Below, piece after piece: positions 3,391 to 62,109 of a stretch of 64,000 nucleotides of DNA (positions within the stretch are counted from its first letter, which is position 1; each line of letters starts with the position of its first letter). Location: the NCBI GenBank assembly GCA_044337875.1, contig JBIIMS010000005.1, positions 142,350-206,349 on the forward strand, read 5' to 3'. The position numbers and the translations under genes were made by a program. The notes under the pieces are model-generated. The model searched no databases and had not been told where the DNA came from. It saw nothing but the letters and a program-made list of their open reading frames with translations. The stretch is from Gemmataceae bacterium. Lineage in GTDB: Bacteria; Planctomycetota; Planctomycetia; Gemmatales; Gemmataceae.

Positions 3391-5091
3391 TTGAGCCAAG
3401 ATATTACCCTTAAAACACCAGAAATTCAAAATCAAAATCGTAGGCATGACTTGGATGCCTTGCGTGCATTTGCCATGTTTCTTGGCATTGGATTGCATGC
3501 ATCCTTAAGTTTTGTTTCACTTCCCTGGCCTGTTCAGGATATTACACAACCTCCCATTTTTATTTTTTTCATAGTACTCGTTCATGGCTTTCGAATGCCC
3601 CTGTTTTTTCTGCTGAGTGGTTTTTTCACCATGATGCTTTTTCGCAAAAGAAATATCAAATCATTGATTTTACAAAGAATACTCCGCATTCTTTTGCCCT
3701 GCTTGATTGGGTGTTTCACCATTATTCCGCTATTAGGTTATGTTTCAAGAGAAACAGTCAAAGCCGGTTCGATAAGTGTGCACTTGGATGAAAATTCGCT
3801 TGCAGGGGCAATCCGCAAAGGCGACAGAAAAACCATCAATATATTCCTTATCAACCCAAATGAAATTGAAAAACCTGACAAAAGATTAGGCGTAACACCC
3901 CTTTCATGGGCTGCAATGATAGGAGATCTCGAAACAGTTTCCGAATTAATCAAGCTAGGGGCAGATGTAAATTCAACTAACAAGGATGATACGACCGCAC
4001 TGCATGGCGCAGCTTTTTTAGGCAGAGATGCAATTGTAAAACTACTTTTATTTCATGATGCCAATACCAGCAAACGCAGCAAAGCAGGCTTCACCGCTCT
4101 GGAAGGTACTTTTGCAGATTCCAATACCACAACCTTAATTTTGAATGTTCTTGATATTCAACCACCCAACGATACTGATTTAACTTCAGGAAGAATTAGT
4201 GTTCGTAACAGATTATTGTTAAACCAGTTTTTAACCCCCGCTTCAAAAGACGAAGCTCAGACAATCGCAATAACCAACCCTAAAGAACAAAATGAATTTT
4301 ATAAACGGTATTACTCTTGGCTTACTTCATCTTTTTTCCAGATAAATTTCTTTAACAAACCAACGCACCTGTTTAAAACCAGTATTTTTAATCATCTCTG
4401 GTTTCTTTGGTTTCTCTGCTGGATGCTTCCATTATTTCTTGTTTTTTTCAATCTAGGATCCCTTTTATTTCGTAATTTAAATCCCAACACCATGCGCATC
4501 CTTAAAAAGGCGATGCTATATATTTTAATCCCAGCACCTTTGTTACCGCTTTGCCTCATGGGTGAAATACTTGGCCCTGATACTTATACCGGGATACTCC
4601 CACCCCCACACATGTTGTTTTATTACATGATCTTTTTCAGCTTCGGCTTGATCTACTTCGACTTAAATGATTCCGCCTGTAAACTCACACGCTTTTGGTA
4701 CATCATGCTGCCATTGGCTTTGTTCATGATTTTTCCTGCAGAGATTGTATTCAAGGACAACTTACCATTGAACCTTTTGATGCAAACACTCTTAATATGG
4801 AACATGGCATTTGGAATGATGGGAATGTTTCATGCACTTATCAAGAAAGAAAACATCTTCATTCGATATTTATCTGATTCTTCTTATTGGATTTATATTG
4901 TACATCTGCCTTTAGTCATAGTGTTGCAATTCCTCGTCAAAGAGTGGCCTACTAGTGCTTTATTAAAATTCCTACTGATCAATATTGCGACGATCACCTT
5001 GCTGCTTTTCAGTTACCATTTGCTAGTTCGTTCGACATGGATTGGATGGTTGTTGAATGGTCGAATGATGCCTTGGTTCCGTAAAGCTTAG
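3391..5091 (+). CDS. Acyltransferase family 3 (OpgC/OafA-like) membrane protein with an inserted ankyrin-repeat module
   Basis: TTG start 20 nt after the preceding stop. N-terminus RRHDLDALRAFAMFLGIGLHASLSF is typical of acyltransferase_3, and there are many TM helices. Residues encoded at about 3790-4110 carry ANK repeats (GVTPLSWAAMIGDLETVSELIKLGADVNSTNKDDTTALHGAAFLGRDAIVKLLLFHDAN). Confidence 0.65.
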   Translation: MSQDITLKTPEIQNQNRRHDLDALRAFAMFLGIGLHASLSFVSLPWPVQDITQPPIFIFFIVLVHGFRMPLFFLLSGFFTMMLFRKRNIKSLILQRILRILLPCLIGCFTIIPLLGYVSRETVKAGSISVHLDENSLAGAIRKGDRKTINIFLINPNEIEKPDKRLGVTPLSWAAMIGDLETVSELIKLGADVNSTNKDDTTALHGAAFLGRDAIVKLLLFHDANTSKRSKAGFTALEGTFADSNTTTLILNVLDIQPPNDTDLTSGRISVRNRLLLNQFLTPASKDEAQTIAITNPKEQNEFYKRYYSWLTSSFFQINFFNKPTHLFKTSIFNHLWFLWFLCWMLPLFLVFFNLGSLLFRNLNPNTMRILKKAMLYILIPAPLLPLCLMGEILGPDTYTGILPPPHMLFYYMIFFSFGLIYFDLNDSACKLTRFWYIMLPLALFMIFPAEIVFKDNLPLNLLMQTLLIWNMAFGMMGMFHALIKKENIFIRYLSDSSYWIYIVHLPLVIVLQFLVKEWPTSALLKFLLINIATITLLLFSYHLLVRSTWIGWLLNGRMMPWFRKA

Positions 5092-28816: not shown

Positions 28817-30229
28817 ATGGCTTATTCTCATGTGATTCGTGGCGAACAATATAACTTCGCAGATCTTAAAGCGCTTTTAGCCAAGGCCAATGAACCCAAA
28901 TCCGGAGATTTACTTGCAGGCATCGCTGCGAACAATGAAAGAGAACGCATCGCTGCAAAAATGGCCCTTGCAGATCTACCCCTAAGCGAATTCCTTGCCC
29001 ACCCCATTCTCGACCCCGATGCCGATGACGTCTCCAAAGTAATATTCGACACCCATGACTCAGTTGCGTTCAAACCCATTGCATCCCTTACGGTAGGGGA
29101 ACTACGAGAATACTTATTGCAGGATTTGCCCCAAGGAGCAGAACTTAAAAACCTTCAACAGGGGCTTACCCCAGAAATGGTAGCTGCGGTCACCAAGCTG
29201 CTTGCCAACAAAGAGTTGATTGCAATTGCAGCTAAGATTAAAAACATCGCCCGTTGCAGAAACACCACCGGCATTGCAGGAACCCTAGGCGTTCGTATCC
29301 AACCCAATCACCCCACCGATAACACCGCTGGCATTGCAGCTTCCTGCATCGATGGATTGCTTATGGGGGCGGGCGATGCAGTGATAGGGGTCAACCCCGC
29401 GGTGGATTCCATTGATTCCGTTTCCGCAATTTTGAAATCCATCGATCATGTAATCACCTCGCTGAATATTCCAACTCAGGGATGCTGCCTAGCACACATC
29501 TCCACCCAGTTAGGTGCGATGAAAAAAAACGCTCCAATTGATCTTTTATTTCAATCCATAGGTGGGACTCAGAAAACCAATGAAAGCTTTGGCATCTCTC
29601 TCGCCCTGCTTAAGGAAGGTAAAGAGCAAGTGCTAGAACATCACACATCCAGAAATGTTAATTGGTTGGGTAATCAAGCCATGTACTTTGAAACCGGGCA
29701 AGGTAGTTCGCTTTCTGCAAATGCCCATCATGGTATTGATCAACTTACCCTCGAGGCCCGGGCCTATGGCTTGGCACGAACCCTTGACCCGTTTCTTGTA
29801 AACAGCGTGGTGGGTTTCATCGGGCCGGAATATCTTTTTGATGAAAGACAGATCATTCGTGCAGGGCTTGAAGATCACTTCATGGGCAAATTACTGGGCC
29901 TACCCATGGGAGTTGATGTTTGCTTTACCAACCATGCCGAAGCGGATCACAACTCGCTTGATAACCTGCTTCTATTGTTGGCCAATGCTGGGGTTAATTA
30001 CATCATGGGGGTTCCATCAGGTGATGATGTGATGCTTAGTTATCAAACTACAAGCTATCACGATGCAGCCATGGTAAAGTCTTTGCTTGGGCTTAAGGCT
30101 GCGCCTGAATTCCAAACATGGCTTGAACATAATGGAATCATGAATGGCTCTTCGCTTTGTGGCAAAGACCGAGCTTTTACAGTTATGAAAAATATTCTTC
30201 CAATTCTCGAAAACACCAAGGATGCTTGA
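28817..30229 (+). CDS. eutB: Ethanolamine ammonia-lyase large subunit
   Basis: 470 aa. The N-terminus YSHVIRGEQYNFADLKALLAKANEPKSGDLLAGIAA and overall length match EutB. Confidence 0.9.
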   Translation: MAYSHVIRGEQYNFADLKALLAKANEPKSGDLLAGIAANNERERIAAKMALADLPLSEFLAHPILDPDADDVSKVIFDTHDSVAFKPIASLTVGELREYLLQDLPQGAELKNLQQGLTPEMVAAVTKLLANKELIAIAAKIKNIARCRNTTGIAGTLGVRIQPNHPTDNTAGIAASCIDGLLMGAGDAVIGVNPAVDSIDSVSAILKSIDHVITSLNIPTQGCCLAHISTQLGAMKKNAPIDLLFQSIGGTQKTNESFGISLALLKEGKEQVLEHHTSRNVNWLGNQAMYFETGQGSSLSANAHHGIDQLTLEARAYGLARTLDPFLVNSVVGFIGPEYLFDERQIIRAGLEDHFMGKLLGLPMGVDVCFTNHAEADHNSLDNLLLLLANAGVNYIMGVPSGDDVMLSYQTTSYHDAAMVKSLLGLKAAPEFQTWLEHNGIMNGSSLCGKDRAFTVMKNILPILENTKDA

Positions 30230-31704
30230 TGAACACCAATGAAAAACACGCCAGCGAAGACCAAAAAAACTTAGCCAGAATGGGTTACGAGCAAGAGCTT
30301 TTCCGGGGGTTTAGTGCGTTTTCGAACTATGCGCTTTCCATGTCCATCATTTGTATCCTTGCGGGTGGTATCACTTCTTTTCATATGGGGTATTGTGCAG
30401 CAGGCCCCGCAGCAATTGGAATTGGCTGGCCCATTGCTTGCTTATTTTCATTTGCAGTAGCAGCAGCAATGGCACAGATAGCCTCTGCGTTTCCTACCGC
30501 AGGCGGGCTTTATCACTGGGGCTCTCTTCTAGGTGGCAGAGGTTGGGGCTGGGTTACTGCTTGGTTCAACCTTGCTGGTATTGTCATCATCCTTGCTGCC
30601 ATCAATGTGGGCACCTGGAACTTTATCGAAAGTAGTATTTTCGGTAGCGCTGATCTAGGGGACTTCGCTCAGGTTATTGCTGTTTCCATCATTACTTTTT
30701 CACAGCTTGCCATCAACCTTTTTGGCATGCGCATCGTTAACCCCATGACCATCTTCAGCGGTTACTGGATTCTGATGGTAACTGTTGCACTGGTTGTTTT
30801 GATGTTGGTTTTTGGCGGGCCCGTGCATCCCGAAAGATTATTTCAATTCGAAAACTTCAGTGGCCTTCCTGAAGGTGACAAACAAGTATGGCCCGAAATA
30901 GAATCAATCGCATGGCTTTTTTTTCTGGCAATGCTGCTTCCAGCCTACACCATCACTGGATTTGATGGCTCCGCCCACGCCGCTGAAGAAACAAAGAACG
31001 CTGCATCCGCAGTCCCCAAGGCAATCATGCAGGCAGTAATAGTTTCCAGTATTGCAGGCTATATACTGCTTGCTGTTGCAATCCTGGTGATTGATGATAC
31101 CAAGCATGTTGCAATGCAGGGCGATCGGGCATTTGTCACCATCGTTGAACAATCCCTCCCCAAACTTTTACAGGCCCCGGCATTCATCGCAATTGTTCTT
31201 TCACAATACCTTTGTGGTATGTCTGTAATAACTGCGGCATCTCGCATGGCCTTTGCATTTGCAAGAGATGGTGGCTTACCTTTTTCCAACTTCTTCAAAA
31301 AGGTTTCCCCTAAAACCCAAGTACCCACCAATGCTATCTTTTTGGTTTCCATCACTGCAATCCTGTTTACACTTTATTCGCATCTTTATGACACCATAGC
31401 AGCGGCTGCAACCATCCTTCTTTATCTGTCCTACATGCTTCCCATCCTTGCAGGATTTTTTGTACATGGCAAAAGTTGGAAAAGCATGGGCCCCTGGCAC
31501 CTGGGAATCTGGTTTAAACCAATGGCATTATTAAGCACGATTGCATCGATTGGAATTGTTTGCATTGGCATCCAACCTCCCAATGAAAAAGCTGGTTATG
31601 CTGTGCTTGCACTCACCATCTTCCTCATTGCGTTCTGGTTTACCGTAGCAAGGCACCGCTTTCAAGGCCCCCCTATTTCCCTGAAACAAATGCAGGAAAA
31701 ATAA
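30229..31704 (+). CDS. APC-family amino acid/ethanolamine permease
   Basis: ATG 30229 overlaps the eutB stop (TGATG). About 12 TM helices. MGYEQELFRGFSAFSNYALSMSIICILAGGITSF is typical of the APC superfamily. It sits between eutB and eutC. Confidence 0.75.
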   Translation: MNTNEKHASEDQKNLARMGYEQELFRGFSAFSNYALSMSIICILAGGITSFHMGYCAAGPAAIGIGWPIACLFSFAVAAAMAQIASAFPTAGGLYHWGSLLGGRGWGWVTAWFNLAGIVIILAAINVGTWNFIESSIFGSADLGDFAQVIAVSIITFSQLAINLFGMRIVNPMTIFSGYWILMVTVALVVLMLVFGGPVHPERLFQFENFSGLPEGDKQVWPEIESIAWLFFLAMLLPAYTITGFDGSAHAAEETKNAASAVPKAIMQAVIVSSIAGYILLAVAILVIDDTKHVAMQGDRAFVTIVEQSLPKLLQAPAFIAIVLSQYLCGMSVITAASRMAFAFARDGGLPFSNFFKKVSPKTQVPTNAIFLVSITAILFTLYSHLYDTIAAAATILLYLSYMLPILAGFFVHGKSWKSMGPWHLGIWFKPMALLSTIASIGIVCIGIQPPNEKAGYAVLALTIFLIAFWFTVARHRFQGPPISLKQMQEK

Positions 31705-31706
31705 TC

Positions 31707-32462
31707 ATGGACCATGAAGCGGCAATACAAACGATTTGTAAATCCTTAACTTCAGCAAGAGTATTTGCAGCCCGAAAAGGCACCGCCCTTTCCACCAAGG
31801 ATTGGCTTTTACTTCGTGCAGATCACGCCTTCGCCCGAGATGCTGTTTTTGAATCCATCGATTTGGAACGCGATTTCCGCAGCGAACGAATCGATCAAAT
31901 GGGACTGTTTGAAGTCGCTTCCAAAGCCAATAACAGACATGAATATTTACTAAAACCTGATCTGGGCAGGCAATTAAATCCCCCTGATCGCAATCGCATC
32001 CAGCAGCAATGCCCTTTCCAACCGCAACTCCAAATCATCCTTGCGGATGGATTATCCCCCGCAGCTTTAAAACTTCAAGGACCACCACTTCTCGACTCCC
32101 TCTGGGAACTTGCACTTAATCAGGGTTGGACTCTGGGCAGGCCTTTCCTTGTTCATCAGGCACGCGTTGGGATTCTTAACGAAATTGGAAATCTACTCGA
32201 ACCAGAAATCGCAATTCTTCTCGTTGGCGAACGGCCCGGCTTAACCACAGCAAACAGTCTTTCCGCATACCTTGCTTACAAACCCAATCTTGGCCAGGAT
32301 GATGCAAACCGCAATTTGATTTCCAATATTCATGGGAACGGTGTAGGGACCAAGGATGCCTGTGTTCGAATCATGGCCCTGGCACAATCAATGAGAAGCG
32401 CAAAAACTGGTGGTATCACCATCAAGGAAACTTTGACGCTGGTAAAAGCACCAAATGATTAA
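31707..32462 (+). CDS. eutC: Ethanolamine ammonia-lyase small subunit
   Basis: 251 aa. ILADGLSPAAL and LLVGERPGLTTANSLSAYLAYKP are EutC signatures. It starts 2 nt after the permease stop. Confidence 0.85.
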   Translation: MDHEAAIQTICKSLTSARVFAARKGTALSTKDWLLLRADHAFARDAVFESIDLERDFRSERIDQMGLFEVASKANNRHEYLLKPDLGRQLNPPDRNRIQQQCPFQPQLQIILADGLSPAALKLQGPPLLDSLWELALNQGWTLGRPFLVHQARVGILNEIGNLLEPEIAILLVGERPGLTTANSLSAYLAYKPNLGQDDANRNLISNIHGNGVGTKDACVRIMALAQSMRSAKTGGITIKETLTLVKAPND

Positions 32463-36820: not shown

Positions 36821-38965
36821 TTAATTGCGCTTTAATAGTCTTACGGAGAAATCTTTGCAGCCAAGCAGCAAGGTTGTTCCGTCATCATTTCCAGTGATGC
36901 AATTCACCTCAGAGTCTAAATGACCAAGGGTGTTTGTTTTCAACTTTGTTTTTAAATCGTAGAGGAAGGGCAAGCCTTTCTTGGGAAATACAAAAAGATC
37001 GCTTGTGTTTTTGGGAAAAAATAAAGCTGTAATGGGGCATTCAGTTTCAATTAAAACTTCTTTTTTGGCAGTGATTAAATCCCAGCGGTTGATTTTTAAA
37101 TCGTAGGGTTCTTTGAGCGTTTGCATTTGACCTCCAAATGCAGTTATTGCCAAGGTGCCTTCGGTATTCATTGAAAAAGAGTTGTAAACTTGATCGGGCC
37201 CACTCAGGGTTTGGGTTCTTTTCCCGGACTCCACATCGTATACGCAAATTTTCCCATCCCGTAGACAACAGACCATGGTCTTACCATCTCCCGAAAGACC
37301 CATGTGCCAAACCTGCCGGGGAGAACCTAAAGTAAGGTTTTTAGGATCCTGTTTATCCAAATATTCAAAGAATTGGATTTGGGAACCGGTTTCAAGATTC
37401 CATAGTCTTGCAGTGCAATCCCAACTGCATGATATTGCCCTTTTTCCATCAGGTAAAAAAAATACATTTCGTATGGAATGAAGATGTCCGGACAAGACTT
37501 TTATTTTTTCGCCTTTTACCAAATCCCATAGGACTATTTTATTGTCTAGGAAGTCGCCTCCCGATAAAGCCTGATGACCATCTTTGGAAATTGCGATAGA
37601 TACTACATTTTTGGTGTGTTCATTTAGCTGAAATCTGGGTTTATGATTCTCAAGGTCCCAAACAATTGCTTGCCTGTCTGCGCCACCGCTGATGCCAGTT
37701 TTGCCATCTTCAGACAACGCAGTGCAATATACTTCTCCCCTATGCCCTACTAGGGTTATCTCGTCAAAGGCTGGTTTTTTAGGTTTAACCATAACAGCAA
37801 TAGAAAACAGGCTTAAGGTTATTAAAGCAACTCCAACCAAAGCCCCTAGGAATATGGATTTTCGATTTAATCTTGATGGGATTTTGGCAGGAGTGGAATT
37901 AGCCAGCTTGATCTGACTTATAAATTCGGTACAGCTTTTCCATCGTTTTAATGGGTTTTTATCTAGGGCCTTTGCAACCACCCATCTTTGATGAATGGGT
38001 ATCATGGAAAGATCAGGCTGGCGATTACAATGCCCTGCCATGATTTCAGCGGCGTTGCCTGTAAAGGGCAAAGTACCACCCCGGATTTGGCAGTAAGTAA
38101 TTGCAAGGGAATATTGATCCGAGGTTGCGCTCATTTTTTCCTGAAAGAACTCAGGGGGCGAATAGCTTGGGGTCATGCAACCGCTGTGTTGATTAGTTTC
38201 TTCATCGAGGATGCGTGCGAGTCCGAAGTCGCCAAGTTTTAAAGCGCCCCCCACGATTAACATGTTTTGTGGCTTGATATCTCGGTGAAGAATAGAAACG
38301 GTTTCGCCATCTTCCAGTAAGTGTCTTTTCTGATTAAGAAAATTGAGGGCTTCTGCAGCATCAGTAAACATGGAAAGGATTTCATTTTCGTTAGGCTTAT
38401 TTTTGTTTACATATTCAAGGAAATTCATTTCCGCCAGCTCGAAGGCAATCCAAAGATGTTCTTCAATGATCCAGAATCCAAAAATAGATAATAAATGGGG
38501 GTGTCTGATTGATTTGAAAAGATTGAGGGAACGGATTTCAATAATGTCGAGCCCGTTGGCCATGGGGATAATTTTCATTGCGAGGGAAACATCGCCTGGC
38601 CCCTTGGCTTCCCAAACTTCACCAAAGCTACCTTTGCCAATTTTTTGGATCAGCCGATATCCTGAAACGGGTGAATCGCCCTTGGTAATATTGCTGGGAA
38701 TTAGGGTTTCTTTATCTGGGAAAGTTTCGCCTGTTGGTTCGGAATTTGTCGTAAGAAGCCAATCCATTCTCTGAAGTTTTTCGATTGCTTTTGGTAATTG
38801 ATCCTTGAGGTTGGGGTAGGATAGTAAAAAAGATTCCAGAGAAATATCTTTTTGTAATGCTCGTTGTTCTTCATACTTAAATAAAGCTTCTTCGAGTTCT
38901 TGATTTATTTCGTGTCGAGAAGCATCCATATATTTATCACCATATTCTGGGTTTGAGAATGGCAC
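36821..38965 (-). CDS. Ser/Thr protein kinase with TM segment and C-terminal WD40 beta-propeller
   Basis: It has GKGSFGEVWEA, HRDIKPQNMLI and DFGLAR motifs, the TM helix IFLGALVGVALITLSLFSIAVMV, and then WD repeats (e.g. GHRGEVYCTALSEDGKTGISGGADRQAIVWD). Confidence 0.85.
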   Translation of the reverse strand: MPFSNPEYGDKYMDASRHEINQELEEALFKYEEQRALQKDISLESFLLSYPNLKDQLPKAIEKLQRMDWLLTTNSEPTGETFPDKETLIPSNITKGDSPVSGYRLIQKIGKGSFGEVWEAKGPGDVSLAMKIIPMANGLDIIEIRSLNLFKSIRHPHLLSIFGFWIIEEHLWIAFELAEMNFLEYVNKNKPNENEILSMFTDAAEALNFLNQKRHLLEDGETVSILHRDIKPQNMLIVGGALKLGDFGLARILDEETNQHSGCMTPSYSPPEFFQEKMSATSDQYSLAITYCQIRGGTLPFTGNAAEIMAGHCNRQPDLSMIPIHQRWVVAKALDKNPLKRWKSCTEFISQIKLANSTPAKIPSRLNRKSIFLGALVGVALITLSLFSIAVMVKPKKPAFDEITLVGHRGEVYCTALSEDGKTGISGGADRQAIVWDLENHKPRFQLNEHTKNVVSIAISKDGHQALSGGDFLDNKIVLWDLVKGEKIKVLSGHLHSIRNVFFLPDGKRAISCSWDCTARLWNLETGSQIQFFEYLDKQDPKNLTLGSPRQVWHMGLSGDGKTMVCCLRDGKICVYDVESGKRTQTLSGPDQVYNSFSMNTEGTLAITAFGGQMQTLKEPYDLKINRWDLITAKKEVLIETECPITALFFPKNTSDLFVFPKKGLPFLYDLKTKLKTNTLGHLDSEVNCITGNDDGTTLLLGCKDFSVRLLKRN

Positions 38966-53727: not shown

Positions 53728-55581
53728 TTAATCAGGTTGATTAGCGGGGCCAATCTTCCCAGCCCTTTTAATGATAGGGCCATTTTCCACCCTGCGAAGT
53801 GCAACACGCGTATTATCATCCGTGGTAATTCCTAGGAACATAAAGCACATTTCATCGGTGGTCTGCTCACCAAACTTAACCCACTTGGGCGGGATGCTAG
53901 GGTTGTGGGGATTGTTGTTGGTATTATCAAAGACAGCTTCGATCTCAATTTTAGTACCTTCTTTTAGCCTCATTGGTTCCTTGAGAAAATAAATCTCCTG
54001 CCAGTTGTAGTCCCACGAATCAATGCGAATAGCTTCAAAAGTTTTTTCACCGGGCTGAGTTATGTTCATAACAAATTTCTTACCGATAAGGTGCATATGA
54101 GGATCGACAGAATGCATTAATACTTCTTGGGCAAGCCAGATGGTATTGCGAACGGTATAGTCGGGCTTATTTGCAGGGATGACAAGAAACTGCCCGGGAA
54201 TCACAAGAGGCTGCACATAACGCTTTGCAGGTTTCTTAGCAAAGTAAAGCCCAACACGAGAGCGATCTTTTTCTTCTTTGCCTGTACGATGGTAATGCAT
54301 CTGAACAATAAAATCAGATCCCTTAGGAAGGAAGTAACCAATGCCCTCGGGAAGAAACTTAGGAGAAATGCCGGGCGCCCAGCCACCCATTTCCCCCGAA
54401 GGAGGAAACCCAACACCCATTGCAGAAGTATAACCCGGGCCATGATCTCCCTTGGTTTCTCCCACACCATTCTTTTCCTTCCAACTGCTTTGTAAATCTC
54501 TGCCTTTACCCGATTTATCCAAATAATGAAGGGTATGATGAACCACCCTGCGATTGCCTGGCCTAAATTCATAAGCCACCACAATTTTGTCTTCGGTGAG
54601 ATTAGTAGGTAAAACCATACAGCGGAAAAGATCTTTGCCTGTACCTGCCAACACCATATCTTCAGAAGGTTCCAAAATTAAATCGGGCTCTCCCAATTGC
54701 CAACCTTCGGTAAACCGCTTGGGCAATGGTGCATTAGCAAAATCCCCTTCCGCACATCCCCCCTTTACCCAGTTGCGTAGCAACGAAGTTTCCGCATCAC
54801 TCATTCTGCGTTCGCCCCGATAGTGCAATCCGCCACTAGGCAACCAAGGTGGCATCTGTTTTTTCTCTACCACTTCCACAAGAAGATCTTTCCAGCGCAC
54901 TGCATCGTTAAAGCTGGTTAACGAAAAGGGGGCGACTTCTCCCGGACGATGGCAGGCTTGACATTTTTCCTGAATAATCGGAGCGATATCGCGATGATAA
55001 GTTACTTTACCCTCTGCAACTTTGGGCAAAGGCCTGCTAATAGGGCAACCCACCGCATCGGTTTTTTTAATCTCAGGTGCTTTGTTCGCAAGATAAGATT
55101 CAATCGCATCGATAAGATCTTTTTTCTTAGGCGTAACATTCCTACGCAAACGTTCGGTCCAAGAATCATCCACTCTTCCCGAGTAAACGACCGCCCCTTT
55201 TGAATCCAAAAGAAACACCTCAGGCGTAATCTTTGCGCCTAAAGCATCCACCAATATAAGCTTGGCGTCATGAAGAACTGGAAACCCAATTTTATACTCG
55301 CGAGCATCTTTCTTTAACTCAGAATCCTCATCCGAATTGGGAATCACCCCAATAAAATTCACACCCTTGGAACTATAGAGGGTTGCGAGTCGGGCTAGTT
55401 CTGTGCTGTATTCTGAACTTATCGGGCATTCAAATTGCATGAAAACAACGACCGTCGCCTTGCTGCCTGCGTGATCTGCCAACTTTGCAGCCTTGCCCTC
55501 TAGATTCTTTATCGAGACTTCAAGCGGGTTGGCCTGCATCATTGCAAAAGATAAAAGACAAAGTGTTGTAATCGAATGCAT
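53728..55581 (-). CDS. Secreted fusion: thioredoxin-fold redoxin (CPIS), heme-c CxxCH segment and copper type II ascorbate-dependent monooxygenase-like (PHM/DBH-like) domains
   Basis: The frame is open from 55611. ATG 55581 has AGGA upstream and gives the signal peptide MHSITTLCLLSFAMMQA. Motifs: VVVFMQFECPISSEY (redoxin, CxxS), CQACHRPG (heme c), and VVHHTLHY, MHYHRTGK, PHMHLIGK and TDEMCFMFLG (copper-site-like His/Met motifs). Confidence 0.65.
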   Translation of the reverse strand: MHSITTLCLLSFAMMQANPLEVSIKNLEGKAAKLADHAGSKATVVVFMQFECPISSEYSTELARLATLYSSKGVNFIGVIPNSDEDSELKKDAREYKIGFPVLHDAKLILVDALGAKITPEVFLLDSKGAVVYSGRVDDSWTERLRRNVTPKKKDLIDAIESYLANKAPEIKKTDAVGCPISRPLPKVAEGKVTYHRDIAPIIQEKCQACHRPGEVAPFSLTSFNDAVRWKDLLVEVVEKKQMPPWLPSGGLHYRGERRMSDAETSLLRNWVKGGCAEGDFANAPLPKRFTEGWQLGEPDLILEPSEDMVLAGTGKDLFRCMVLPTNLTEDKIVVAYEFRPGNRRVVHHTLHYLDKSGKGRDLQSSWKEKNGVGETKGDHGPGYTSAMGVGFPPSGEMGGWAPGISPKFLPEGIGYFLPKGSDFIVQMHYHRTGKEEKDRSRVGLYFAKKPAKRYVQPLVIPGQFLVIPANKPDYTVRNTIWLAQEVLMHSVDPHMHLIGKKFVMNITQPGEKTFEAIRIDSWDYNWQEIYFLKEPMRLKEGTKIEIEAVFDNTNNNPHNPSIPPKWVKFGEQTTDEMCFMFLGITTDDNTRVALRRVENGPIIKRAGKIGPANQPD

Positions 55582-55818
55582 AATGATTTTTCCTGTGTTT
55601 AATGAGCACAATGAATCAACACTAACTCAATCATTTTATCAGGGAGACGTGACAAGAGATTCTGGCATTGGTTTAATTACATCAACCTCAAGTTTAACAG
55701 GTTCAGAATGAACCCCGTCCGGCAGTTTTGCGAAGAAAACCTCTAGAAAAACTTTTTGCGTTCCTTCAGGCACTTTGCTGGTCTCGACCGAGGCCAGAAA
55801 GGGATCTTGTGAACCCGC

Positions 55819-57907: not shown

Positions 57908-57936
57908 TTGACCAATGATCATCCTGACTTTACTAT
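57908..57936 (+). promoter_or_regulatory. Sigma70-like promoter candidate for the Cys-rich repeat gene
   Basis: TTGACC (57908-57913), a 17-nt spacer, then TACTAT (57931-57936). It lies about 245 nt upstream of ATG 58182. Confidence 0.35.
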
Positions 57937-58181
57937 GTTATCTAAATAACCCCTCCTCCGCCCAATCTCCGATAAGGAGACGATGTAAGGAGACATCGGT
58001 TGCCTTATCCGGCAGGCCTGTGTTGAAACTCAACGACAGGAAAGTTTATCCGGGTAGGTTGTTTGGTCACTTGATGGAATGGGGAGGAGCGTGAGTTCAG
58101 TCTTTTGGCAGGCCCGCTGTGGGTTTGTTCTGAATCGGTAGAAGGGGTTAAAAGGTTCCTGGTTTTCATGGAGTATGTGAA

Positions 58182-58547
58182 ATGTATAGTGTTGTATTGT
58201 TGGTTGCCCTTAGTGGCAGTGCTGATGTTGTTGAACTTGGCGGACACAAGAGCTGCAATGGTTGCAGCGGCGCCGTAGTTGTTGAAAAGTCCAGCTGTAA
58301 TGGCTGCAAGGGCGGACACAAGTTGTTCGACCGTGCTCCTAAGGGCTGCTGTGGTGGTAACAAGTTGTTCGACCGCGCATCTAAGAGCTGCAATGGTTGC
58401 AACGGTGGCGGACACAAGTTGTTCAACCGTAGCTCCAAGAGCTGCAATGGTTGCAATGGTTGCACAGGTTGCACCGGTGGATCTGCTGTACCAATGGCAG
58501 AACCTAAGAAAGAAGAAAAGAAAGAAGCCCCTAAGAAGGCTGCTTAA
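58182..58547 (+). CDS. Small secreted Cys/Gly-rich tandem-repeat protein (CxxC repeats), uncharacterised
   Basis: GGAG lies 8 nt upstream of the ATG. N-terminus MYSVVLLVALSGSA. There are 12 Cys in 121 aa, arranged as K/S-S-C-N-G-C four times, plus GCC and CNGCNGCTGC. There are three (H/N)KLF(D/N)R units and a KKEEKKEAPKKAA tail. A strong plus-strand terminator follows. Confidence 0.6.
   Translation: MYSVVLLVALSGSADVVELGGHKSCNGCSGAVVVEKSSCNGCKGGHKLFDRAPKGCCGGNKLFDRASKSCNGCNGGGHKLFNRSSKSCNGCNGCTGCTGGSAVPMAEPKKEEKKEAPKKAA
58242..58480 (+). repeat. In-frame tandem DNA repeats inside the Cys-rich gene
   Basis: AAGAGCTGCAATGGTTGCA occurs three times (at 58248, 58382 and 58436), with a diverged fourth copy AGTCCAGCTGTAATGGCTGCA at about 58289. 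AAGTTGTTCGACCG/AAGTTGTTCAACCG recurs three times. Confidence 0.8.
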
Positions 58548-58596
58548 TTAATCTTCTTCAAAGCACGATAAATTAATCTTTAAAGTGCAATTGAAA

Positions 58597-58629
58597 GAAG
58601 GGGAGCCTAACCGCTCCTCTTCTTTTTTT
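58597..58629 (+). terminator. Rho-independent terminator of the Cys-rich gene
   Basis: GAAGGGGAGC (58597-58606) pairs with GCTCCTCTTC (58613-58622), giving 10 bp including one G-U pair, with loop CTAACC. A run of 7 T follows. Confidence 0.7.
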
Positions 58630-58683
58630 GTTGGCACTCATCCCCTTTTTACGGTCTTCTACCTGTATAGAGGGATATTTTTA

Positions 58684-60488: not shown

Positions 60489-60782
60489 TTAGATTAATGT
60501 GCGGATTTTTTGTGCAAGTTCTTCAAGCATTAATTCCCGGATCAGGAATTTCTTATCCCGAGAGCTATGGCCCGATAGGATTTCAATCTGATTTCTTTTG
60601 ATACCTAATGTTTTCTTAAGCAAGTCCATAATAGCATCATTGGCCTTACCATCTTCAGGCGCAGCTTGAACTGAAACTTTAAGCGCACCATCATGCACGC
60701 CATTGATACTGTTTTTTCTTGCACCGGGTTGCGCCCTTATGGGAAGAACAATACCATCCGCATGCAGAGTTATCTTGGGCAT
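60489..60782 (-). CDS. DUF167 (YggU-like) protein
   Basis: The frame is open from 60974, but that part overlaps the upstream gene. ATG 60782 gives MPKITLHADGIVLPIRAQPGARKNSINGVHDGALKVSVQAAPEDGKAN, typical of DUF167. Confidence 0.65.
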   Translation of the reverse strand: MPKITLHADGIVLPIRAQPGARKNSINGVHDGALKVSVQAAPEDGKANDAIMDLLKKTLGIKRNQIEILSGHSSRDKKFLIRELMLEELAQKIRTLI

Positions 60783-60798
60783 GAAGTAATAATCTGGA

Positions 60799-62109
60799 TT
60801 ATTTAATACGCTTACCATCATTGGTGATGGTCGCAGGGCAGGTAAGCCCAACACTGAAATTACCGCTGGTAATGCGCTCGAGATCTGCAAGATTATCCAT
60901 GGTGATGAATTTCGTATGGTTAAAACTCCCCAACATTTTTCCAGCCTTTTCAAATAATTCTGCATTATCAGCACTCAAAAACTTCAATTGGTTATCATGC
61001 AATTCGGAGATGATTTTTCTCAACTCCGGTTCAACCTTCTTTAGTTCATTAAAATTAGTGCGGGTTTCCAATAAAAGTTCGAAGGCATTGCGCACTTCAA
61101 GCCTGATCAGATTCTTAGTGCTTTCCTCGACAGCAGCACCACGATCTGCAAAGGCCTGAGCCCTTGCAACACGGTCAGACTTTTTACCCACAAGCGAAGA
61201 GGGCATTTCAATGGTAATGGCTTCAGGAGTAAAGTTTTCGCCACGCCCTTGCACGCCAATCGGAATGTAATGCAAATCGGAACCACTTGCAAAAGTTCTG
61301 AACTTAGGGTTAAACCTAGCAGATCTCTGGGCATTTACTTCCAAAGCAAGAATTTGAGATGCCTTCGAAGATTTAATAAACTCATCACGGACTAGAACTG
61401 TTTTTTCAATCATTTCATCAATAAATTCAGGCGTAAGCAGGCCTAAAAGATCATAAGAAGGGAATTCAGTTTCCTTGGGTTCGATAAGACCGATTTTATT
61501 TCTGCCACCTACTTCTTCTCTTAATAAAGCCTTGGCCCTTTCAAACCCCGTATTAGCTAATGCATTCTTATGCTTAGCCTCAACCACACCCAACTTTAAT
61601 TTTTGAAGTTTGATATCATCTTCAGGCGTCTTTTTGAGAACCATCTTTAATTCAAGCGCTTTGATGTTCTTGCTTAAAATATCAAGCACTTGCTCGCTCA
61701 AATCACGTTGCTGCTTCGAATAAATAACTAAAAAGTAACTCCGGGCCACCCCATAGGATGTGTCCCTGATTTCCTGCCTCAACCCTGCATCCGCAACCTC
61801 TATCCCCAACTCGGACTGTTGTCTCCTGTACTTCATATCTGGCGAAAGCTTGGCGAAAAAAGGAAGGTTTTGTACCCCGCGTGCTCCCGCTTCCGAACCC
61901 CTCAAACTCGCTTCCGCTGCATGTATTCTTGGATGGTTTGCATTCATCAACTCCAGCGCTTCTGCCAAAGTGATTTTTTTCACCGCCTCTTCACTTCTTG
62001 CAAATCCTGCAAGACCTGTAAATAATGTCGCAACTCCAATTACAGAAAAGAAACTAATGCGATTAAATTTTAACATCGTTTTAAACCTTAAAAGAGTTAG
62101 CAGTTTCAT
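60799..62109 (-). CDS. TolC-like outer-membrane efflux protein
   Basis: ITLAEALELMNANHPRIHAAEASLRGSEA resembles the conserved start of OEP/TolC repeats. 436 aa and coiled-coil rich. Confidence 0.5.
   Translation of the reverse strand: MKLLTLLRFKTMLKFNRISFFSVIGVATLFTGLAGFARSEEAVKKITLAEALELMNANHPRIHAAEASLRGSEAGARGVQNLPFFAKLSPDMKYRRQQSELGIEVADAGLRQEIRDTSYGVARSYFLVIYSKQQRDLSEQVLDILSKNIKALELKMVLKKTPEDDIKLQKLKLGVVEAKHKNALANTGFERAKALLREEVGGRNKIGLIEPKETEFPSYDLLGLLTPEFIDEMIEKTVLVRDEFIKSSKASQILALEVNAQRSARFNPKFRTFASGSDLHYIPIGVQGRGENFTPEAITIEMPSSLVGKKSDRVARAQAFADRGAAVEESTKNLIRLEVRNAFELLLETRTNFNELKKVEPELRKIISELHDNQLKFLSADNAELFEKAGKMLGSFNHTKFITMDNLADLERITSGNFSVGLTCPATITNDGKRIK

Follow-up and report, generated by a model that had tools for sequence, protein, structure and literature searches.

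A small gene at positions 58182–58547 (plus strand) of a 64,000-nucleotide stretch of Gemmataceae bacterium DNA (contig JBIIMS010000005.1; hereafter the window) encodes a Cys-rich tandem-repeat protein that, as judged by sequence comparison, falls with its orthologues in a C-terminally truncated group of the large TIGR03000 family, which is specific to planctomycetes, and ends within what is the interdomain linker of its longer relatives. The gene is protein-coding and under purifying selection, it is separately transcribed, and it follows a conserved, folded 5′ leader. A preliminary description, made from the sequence alone, overlooked that the architecture of the product matches the N-terminal half of proteins ending in a TIGR03000 domain. 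Of interest here are the truncated ortholog group within a large but uncharacterised family, the repeat variation at strain level and the previously unreported structured leader.

Translation of the open reading frame (ORF) gives an ATG start and 121 amino acids followed by a stop codon. The descriptive points made earlier were all confirmed, namely the ORF itself, the 12 Cys (residues 25, 28, 39, 42, 56, 57, 70, 73, 88, 91, 94 and 97), their layout as four SCNGC motifs and one GCC with the final SCNGC running into NGCTGC, the three (H/N)KLF(D/N)R units (HKLFDR, NKLFDR and HKLFNR) and the tail, KKEEKKEAPKKAA. The gene, its signals and the parts of its product are located as follows.

58182–58547, plus strand: coding sequence (CDS), supported by the substitution pattern by codon position and in-frame indels in 18 alleles, and by homologue E values down to 5e-64.
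58182–58223, plus strand: N-terminal family tag MYSVVLLVALSGSA, signal-peptide-like, with likely cleavage after Ala14; invariant in orthologues.
58254–58472, plus strand: Cys/Gly-rich repeat region (C25–C97), made of a variable number of units of the form S-C-N-G-C-x-G-G-(H/N)-K-L-F-(D/N)-R-x-x-K.
58491–58544, plus strand: Lys/Glu/Pro-rich tail PMAEPKKEEKKEAPKKAA, which in alignments equals the linker preceding the TIGR03000 domain of the long forms.
57908–57936, plus strand: putative sigma-70-type promoter from a consensus scan (TTGACC, 17-nt spacer, TACTAT), within TTTACTAT.
58170–58173, plus strand: Shine–Dalgarno (SD) sequence GGAG, 8 nt 5′ of the ATG and directly 3′ of the closed leader fold.
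58593–58634, plus strand: intrinsic terminator, with a 14-bp stem (58593–58626), a 6-nt loop and a T-run.

Orthologous loci were collected by exact-protein look-ups of the closest homologues and by a metagenome scan with a leader DNA pattern, giving 18 distinct orthologous alleles from freshwater planctomycete metagenomes (loci carry L numbers and proteins P numbers below). Variable sites at the three codon positions numbered 5/1/17 over the first 20 codons and 34/28/61 over all ungapped columns, and every length difference among the alleles was a multiple of 3. The third-position excess and the in-frame indels therefore mark the minus-strand and other plus-frame ORFs as by-products of the repeats. 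Four ortholog clades were distinguished: that of the window, that of L001, that of L009 (a 131-aa protein, on contigs of 625–763 kb) and L007, a Lake Baikal Gemmataceae metagenome-assembled genome (MAG) with a 99-aa ortholog, which was found by a genome-collection scan with protein alignment and was the sole locus among the matches listed. An exact-sequence look-up of the window protein in a 15-billion collection returned no match.

Repeat number differs between strains, as had been anticipated, with alleles carrying 1–4 units in 84–131 aa. Two loci from sister samples, L002 and L006, are 99.8–99.98% identical over 12 kb and differ structurally in one respect alone, the in-frame loss of 102 nt (34 aa, two units) from the repeat region. 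At the DNA level, three 54-nt units (58309–58458; spacings 42 and 54 nt) are 74–81% identical, and further repeats comprise a 28-nt Cys-motif unit present six times and a 9-nt period present 3.4 times. The claim of in-frame DNA tandem repeats thus holds for the frame but not as a perfect array, the repeats being imperfect and Tandem Repeats Finder reporting the 9-nt array alone. The C-x-G-C motif is retained in three clades, while L007/P0013 has mostly single Cys about 8–10 residues apart, and His and Asn alternate at the same place within the units.

Both promoter hexamers are unchanged in four of four ortholog clades, with a spacer that varies, and GGAG or GGAGG stands at the equivalent position in every clade and in the long-form paralogs. 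The terminator is likewise kept at orthologous loci. With its own promoter, leader and terminator the window gene is a separately transcribed, monocistronic unit, so that the coding status, transcriptional independence, structured leader and terminator proposed in the preliminary description are borne out by the 18 alleles and the conserved signals. Wherever the recovered flanks were long enough to tell (window and L001 clades, and L007 as judged from ORF lengths), the gene sits between a divergent amidohydrolase gene and ubiE–hemE; ubiE and hemE also lie downstream of the ortholog in the L009 clade. Neighbours at the locus encode amidohydrolase, UbiE, HemE, DUF167, OEP and redoxin-fusion proteins.

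Family membership was established by homology search, which returned close short relatives of 84–146 aa and a second tier of ~200–210 aa. The second-tier proteins resemble the window protein in their first ~17 residues (MYSVVLMMALSGSAEAP), in having a Cys/Gly/His-rich stretch (C-x-G-C, GGLF/HKLF/HRLF) and in their Lys/Glu/Pro linker, and phmmer and profile alignments to TIGR03000 proteins run from residue 1 through the Cys-rich region. The long relatives then extend into the TIGR03000 (plancto_dom_1) domain, with E values of about 1e-20 to 1e-22; P0012, P0014, P0018, P0019 and P0022 score 72–80 bits against an NCBIfam cut-off of 43.1, and the window protein, P0010 and P0013 have no TIGR03000 match in NCBIfam. 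A long-form profile retrieved at least 1,199 clusters (90% identity) at E ≤ 1e-3, the named members being “TIGR03000 domain-containing protein” from Gemmataceae, Gemmatales or Planctomycetes MAGs. The short-form profile retrieved 27 representatives at E ≤ 1e-3 by exhaustive HMMER search, a low yield that is probably due to composition-bias correction. The shared N-terminal module (tag, GGxLF-containing Cys/Gly region and Lys/Glu/Pro linker) lies outside any curated model.

The tag is present in 141 of 146 family sequences, at residue 1 or just past a miscalled start, and is conserved family-wide at M1 and Y2 (100%), S3 (96%), V5 (98%), L6 (94%) and A9 (95%); this N-terminus is kept as protein across more than 140 distant relatives that differ in DNA. 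The entries for P0020, P0054, P0112 and P0144 start at an internal Met (MVLMMAM...); for P0020 the DNA (L027:4992) places the true start three codons upstream (MYSMVLMMAM), and the other three are read likewise by analogy. By inspection, the window tag has the core VVLLVAL, small residues at −3/−1 and a candidate cleavage site, G12-S13-A14↓D15, and the family consensus at the putative signal peptidase I site is G-G/S-A↓E/D-x-P. On the strength of the core and the small −3/−1 residues, the window protein is probably exported. The signal-like N-terminus noted earlier therefore stands as regards these features, but not as a generic signal peptide, being a near-invariant family tag; conservation of this degree suggests that the tag is recognised specifically, over and above ordinary Sec targeting.

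Cleavage at this site would leave a mature chain of ~107 aa with 11% Cys, 18% Gly and 3% His. AlphaFold2, run with a 12-sequence alignment, gave a mean predicted local distance difference test (pLDDT) score of 38 and no secondary structure for the window protein, and the Cys-rich chain is predicted to be intrinsically disordered and basic. For a long form, residues 1–118 had pLDDT <50, and the TIGR03000 domain (~75 aa) was modelled as a six-strand beta-sandwich with pLDDT >90. A Foldseek search of the PDB with this domain was uninformative, the best match being 9k1u_D (E 1e-3) and the others generic Ig-like sandwiches. Across the family the Cys-rich region has about 15% Cys, 27% Gly and 7% His, and the Cys count ranges from 5 to 27, follows repeat number and is odd in 54% of proteins. 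About 90% of the long forms (e.g. P0014, P0018 and P0034) end in VA(S/A/Q)(R/K), a shared type of C-terminal tetrapeptide that suggests a sorting or processing signal.

As had been said at the outset, no characterised function attaches to this architecture. The window protein had no Pfam match at E ≤ 0.01 or E ≤ 10, no NCBIfam match at E ≤ 1 and no PDB sequence match at E ≤ 10, and four relatives were also without any Pfam match at E ≤ 10. Full-text literature searching found no paper mentioning TIGR03000 or the MYSVVL tag, and searches on planctomycete metallothionein and Gemmataceae cysteine yielded nothing relevant beyond background on YTV wall proteins. Haem attachment, as in c-type cytochromes, was rejected, since the window protein contains no CxxCH motif and the motif is missing from 54% of the family (long-form relatives). 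Nor is there a lipobox Cys, the putative cleavage site reading LSGSA↓DV and the first Cys being residue 25, in GHKSC.

The leader was examined by RNAalifold on nine leader sequences, which gave the following fold.

57943–58181, plus strand: leader of ~240 nt, its start placed from the −10 hexamer.
57948–57951 (AACC) with 58161–58164 (GGUU), plus strand: leader helix predicted by RNAalifold.
57953–57962 (CUCCUCC.CC) with 58081–58089 (GGGGAGGAG), plus strand: long-range helix enclosing three hairpins.
57966–57970 with 57976–57980, plus strand: hairpin P1.
57981–57986 with 57993–57998, plus strand: hairpin P2, loop AAGGAG.
58002–58059, plus strand: hairpin P3, with an inner hairpin at 58017–58040.
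58092–58100 with 58130–58137, enclosing 58108–58115 with 58121–58128, plus strand: second domain of two nested helices.
58143–58146 with 58157–58160, plus strand: hairpin proximal to the ribosome-binding site (RBS).

The predicted fold has 61 pairs, with 94% of cells paired, and leaves the SD sequence and AUG unpaired. Pairs changed on both sides numbered 11, compared with 4.5 ± 1.6 in column shuffles and 2–5 in slid controls. At least three stem versions were found for each of P1 (UCUCC/GGAGA, UCUCUG/CAGAGA and CCAGGC/GCCUGG), the inner hairpin of P3 and the hairpin at 58108–58128; the invariance of P2 reflects ascertainment, since the search pattern included this hairpin. The leader is also better conserved between clades than the CDSs of ubiE, hemE or the amidohydrolase gene. 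Relative to the window, the leader of L017 is 92% identical (ubiE and hemE 79–80%), that of L001 82% (flanking CDSs 71–75%), that of L009 72% (65–68%) and that of L007 66% (59–66%); promoter-distal intergenic DNA reaches just 54–58%. The covariation comes from four independent clades and gives moderate support to a structured cis-acting RNA, a candidate new RNA motif. On the plus strand no Rfam family matched the leader at E ≤ 10; near-matches to L20_leader and sbrA were rejected, as they covered just the terminator hairpin and T-run.

A coding role for the leader (ORF 57915–58094, or the upstream extension in P0003) was rejected because 1–2-nt indels between clades break the frame, which makes the leader non-coding. 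P0003 and the window ORF 58105–58278 are gene-calling artefacts that extend or read into the leader, and an ATG–TAA “start–stop” within P2 is not kept in L001. At one locus, L011 (731–830 of contig Ga0255243_1028001), unrelated GC-rich DNA replaces the promoter upstream of hairpin P1, marking either an assembly chimera or a rearrangement breakpoint.

As to expression, two-fold pyrimidine codons end in C at a fraction of 0.70, compared with 0.35 ± 0.09 for 34 window genes (z = 4.1; maximum 0.60); AAG takes 13 of 15 Lys codons, the background pooled over window genes being 0.41; and GGG is not used. Combined with the conserved promoter, folded leader and strong terminator, this codon usage gives the picture of a monocistronic gene expressed at a high level, from which an abundant product may be expected.

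We favour, with a probability of roughly 0.35, the reading that the product is an abundant, exported, disordered, thiol-rich protein of the cell envelope that becomes cross-linked through its Cys. Removal of the tag would leave a basic disordered chain of ~107 aa, in which C-x-G-C/GG(H)KLF units are followed by the Lys/Glu/Pro tail, and this chain would serve as a thiol-rich matrix or spacer in the planctomycete envelope, its Cys forming intermolecular links by disulfides and possibly metal–thiolate bridges. The number of repeat units would set chain length and valency, and could change readily by recombination or slippage between units. Expression would be driven by the conserved near-consensus promoter, with the ~240-nt folded 5′ untranslated region (UTR) keeping the SD sequence and AUG free; the leader may stabilise the mRNA, carry a regulatory input, or both.

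That the number of Cys varies, without regard to parity, along a disordered chain rich in Gly fits a multivalent cross-linker and speaks against both fixed metal sites and a fixed disulfide fold. A location in the envelope is suggested by four features: the long forms carry a folded C-terminal module, the tail is basic and rich in Lys, the gene has the expression profile described above, and wall preparations contain Cys-rich proteins. The modelled beta-sandwich is of a fold type common in extracytoplasmic proteins and was counted towards export. Earlier descriptions of planctomycete walls call them proteinaceous, and PMC8567305 summarises findings that YTV proteins, which are rich in Cys, are the dominant component of wall preparations from Rhodopirellula and Gemmataceae.

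Several points weigh against this reading. The tag has no basic n-region, with no Lys or Arg before the hydrophobic core (MYS-). Metal binding would be just as compatible with the composition in Cys, His and Gly and with the CxxCxxxH spacing of most units. Long forms might be anchored by their beta-sandwich; having none, the window protein could play a different role. The sample behind the codon bias is small and inflated by the repeats, and the comparison was with window genes, not ribosomal-protein genes. Finally, TIGR03000 is not mentioned in the supplements of one Gemmataceae proteome paper, a weak point, as such proteins may be listed there as hypothetical.

The main rival, possible yet on the whole doubtful, is a metallothionein-like buffer or store, exported or cytoplasmic, in which CxxC and His would bind Cu(I), Zn(II) or Cd(II), the repeats would set capacity and the leader would be a metal-responsive riboswitch or the binding site of a regulator. 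The composition of the mature chain and the GGH that follows CxxC in most units suit this role; the apo chain is predicted to be disordered, like apo-metallothioneins, its modular repeat variation recalls the expansion of eukaryotic metallothioneins, and a conserved structured leader is present. Csp1 of methanotrophs provides a precedent for an exported Cys-rich Cu(I) store. However, no metallothionein profile matched even at E ≤ 10, and no metal-sensor, efflux or chaperone gene adjoins the gene in the four ortholog clades or at five long-form loci. The leader is unmatched in Rfam, which includes metal riboswitches, and the constitutive-looking near-consensus promoter would be unusual for an inducible buffer. 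Conservation of Cys and His, which the preliminary description had proposed to examine in relatives, proved mixed: Cys-richness and C-x-G-(C/G) are kept, but CxxC decays in L007 to mostly single Cys and His alternates with Asn. This pattern weakens a model of fixed metal sites more than one of cross-linking.

It is unlikely that the protein stays inside the cell, with the N-terminus acting as a cytoplasmic-face membrane tether or co-translational tag and the protein having an intracellular role, for example as a metal or Fe-S factor. The missing positive n-region, a hydrophobic core of just about 8–10 residues and a conservation that exceeds the needs of Sec targeting would all be accommodated. 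Yet the small −3/−1 residues followed by an acidic residue and Pro suit a signal-peptidase site family-wide, the long-form beta-sandwich and Lys/Glu/Pro linker are typical of extracytoplasmic proteins, and a core of 8–10 residues is too short for a membrane span.

Still less probable is a periplasmic thiol–disulfide redox buffer or sacrificial antioxidant cycling between dithiol and disulfide. Redox activity is classically associated with CxxC, export of the protein is probable, and a gene for a thioredoxin-fold (Redoxin/AhpC-TSA) fusion lies 2.5 kb upstream and is kept in the window and L001 clades. That gene is, however, on the opposite strand with the amidohydrolase gene between and was not seen near the L007 ortholog (where ORF lengths alone were compared), and the neighbours of long-form loci are unrelated; moreover, the CxxC motifs of the window protein are set in a Gly-rich, disordered chain that has no thioredoxin fold, and CxxC is not kept in L007.

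We regard as very unlikely a multi-core precursor of small Cys peptides, whether of the kind made ribosomally and modified post-translationally (RiPP) or released by proteolysis, with each unit a core and the N-terminus a recognition leader. The near-invariant N-terminal sequence and the tandem units of varying number, with Lys or Arg at their borders, are what such a precursor would show. Against it, no radical-SAM, YcaO, lanthipeptide, cyclodehydratase or protease/transporter gene adjoins the gene in any ortholog clade, and none of the 64-kb window's ORFs of 250 aa or more is such a gene, which upholds the earlier statement that no radical-SAM or other maturase is nearby. No NCBIfam leader family matched, the folded C-terminal domain of 75 aa found in most family members is atypical of RiPP precursors, and radical-SAM genes found near long-form loci L032 and L033 are not conserved neighbours. 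A low-complexity artefact, with the ORF untranslated or another frame or strand being the gene, is essentially excluded, for although the repeats open long ORFs elsewhere (two on the minus strand, of 102 and 136 aa, and a 90-aa one in a different plus frame), the third-position excess of 5/1/17 fits the 58182–58547 frame, the indels are in-frame, the SD sequence and ATG are conserved and the N-terminus persists across distant relatives.

A bolder extension of the cross-linked envelope protein, which we hold to be rather improbable, would take the tag, the family-wide promoter and the folded leader as a dedicated expression and targeting cassette, a planctomycete-specific class of disordered proteins, rich in thiols and bearing cohesive GLF-type motifs, as a hydrogel-like wall layer and the leader as a new class of thiol-, redox- or metal-sensing cis-regulatory RNA. 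If true, this hydrogel-like, covalently networked layer would supply a major component that has been missing from accounts of the cystine-rich wall of planctomycetes. The TIGR03000 family is among the larger lineage-specific protein families of Planctomycetota, yet is uncharacterised, and the window gene, reduced by nature to tag, Cys/Gly repeats and linker, offers a handle on the role of the N-terminal module. An envelope cross-linker would bear on why planctomycete walls are proteinaceous and cystine-rich, and a metal-binding product would be an unusual exported metallothionein-type protein. The change in repeat number from strain to strain shows contingency-like length variation at work in a non-pathogen.

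Five long-form genes from other lineages were also inspected. All are monocistronic, with promoters of the form TTGAC-N17..19-TTTAC(T/C)AT and leaders of 110–230 nt. The motif GCGTGGGTTGGCTYCC (GCGTGGGTTGGCT(T/C)CC) lies about 25–30 nt 5′ of GGAGG-ATG in four of the five (not in L027); non-coding conservation across these paralogs is unusual. Covariance model R1, built on the 3′ domain of the window type, hit long-form leaders with E = 1.4e-4, 0.078 and 0.91, always at the cognate position; a common structure of the two leader types is not claimed, as the similarity is weak and RBS-near and the score is partly that of the SD sequence and CDS start. A DUF2617 (PF10936) gene follows the long-form gene in four of five contexts, after a gap of about 180–300 nt, and none is present at the window locus. 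The corresponding features are as follows.

L027:4787–4991, L031:4854–5000, L032:4802–5000, L033:4795–5000 and L034:312–578: long-form leaders.
L027:5801–6310, L031:5848–6399, L032:5949–6491 and a contig of JGI 3300047160: DUF2617 genes.

The window is otherwise ordinary planctomycete DNA (G+C 45%), with PSCyt/PSD, DUF1501, DUF1552 and N_methyl-SBP_bac_10 genes; positions 1–64000 contain no tRNA gene, nor does any Rfam family reach its gathering score there. Other observations in it are listed below. The kinase–WD40 and acyltransferase–ankyrin fusions among them are eukaryote-like and typical of planctomycetes.

53728–55611, minus strand: 627-aa fusion of Redoxin/AhpC-TSA, a CQACH haem-type motif and Cu2_monoox_C (copper monooxygenase C-terminal), an unusual combination, two genes upstream of the window gene in the window and L001 clades.
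28817–32462, plus strand: ethanolamine ammonia-lyase genes eutB and eutC, split by an amino-acid permease gene (30229–31704) that abuts or overlaps both.
36821–38929, minus strand: Ser/Thr protein kinase fused to WD40 repeats.
3475–5091, plus strand: acyltransferase-3 protein with ankyrin repeats.
60489–60974, minus strand: 161-aa DUF167/YggU ORF overlapping the upstream OEP (TolC-like) gene (60799–62109, minus strand) by 176 nt; its orthologues have 83–97 aa, and the real start is therefore internal.

Among known systems, the nearest is the TIGR03000 family itself, with which the window gene shares the tag (MYS(V)VLMMAL.G.A(E/D).P), the disordered Cys/Gly/His-rich stretch (C-x-G-C, GG(H)xLF), the Lys/Glu/Pro segment and the monocistronic layout with a TTGAC-N17-TTTACTAT promoter and long leader. 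It differs in that the window protein and its orthologues stop in the linker and so have neither the 75-aa beta-sandwich, the family's sole modelled and defining feature, nor the VA(S/A)(R/K) end at the C-terminus.

A second comparison is with the YTV wall proteins, which we take to be Pfam family PF07639. These are likewise planctomycete-specific, Cys-rich and secreted, and are found in the detergent-resistant wall fraction (PMC8567305), the role proposed here being drawn by analogy. Unlike them, the window protein and four relatives have no YTV domain (Pfam, E ≤ 10), and the window protein is much smaller and Gly-rich, not Pro-rich, its envelope location being a prediction. Within the PVC (Planctomycetes–Verrucomicrobia–Chlamydiae) superphylum, chlamydial OmcA/CrpA is a small Cys-rich envelope protein that joins with OmcB in an outer-membrane complex held together by disulfide cross-links; OmcA has the lipobox Cys of a lipoprotein, whereas the window protein has no lipobox and no sequence similarity to it.

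The SmtA/BmtA metallothioneins and Csp1 are also small and rich in Cys (plus His), with modular Cys motifs, and metallothioneins are disordered in the apo form. SmtA, a cytoplasmic protein, adopts a zinc-finger-like fold and Csp1 a four-helix bundle; by contrast, no fold is predicted for the window protein, the ligand pattern differs between clades, and no profile or PDB sequence match was obtained. The leader, for its part, resembles the long stabilising 5′ UTRs of abundant envelope-protein genes, such as E. coli ompA and S-layer mRNAs, in preceding a monocistronic gene for a presumably abundant, exported product, in its length (≥100 nt), in its stable hairpins near the 5′ end and in its free RBS. 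It bears no sequence or Rfam relationship to them and may stabilise its mRNA in a similar way, and its conservation above that of the neighbouring CDSs suggests that it is more than a generic stabiliser.

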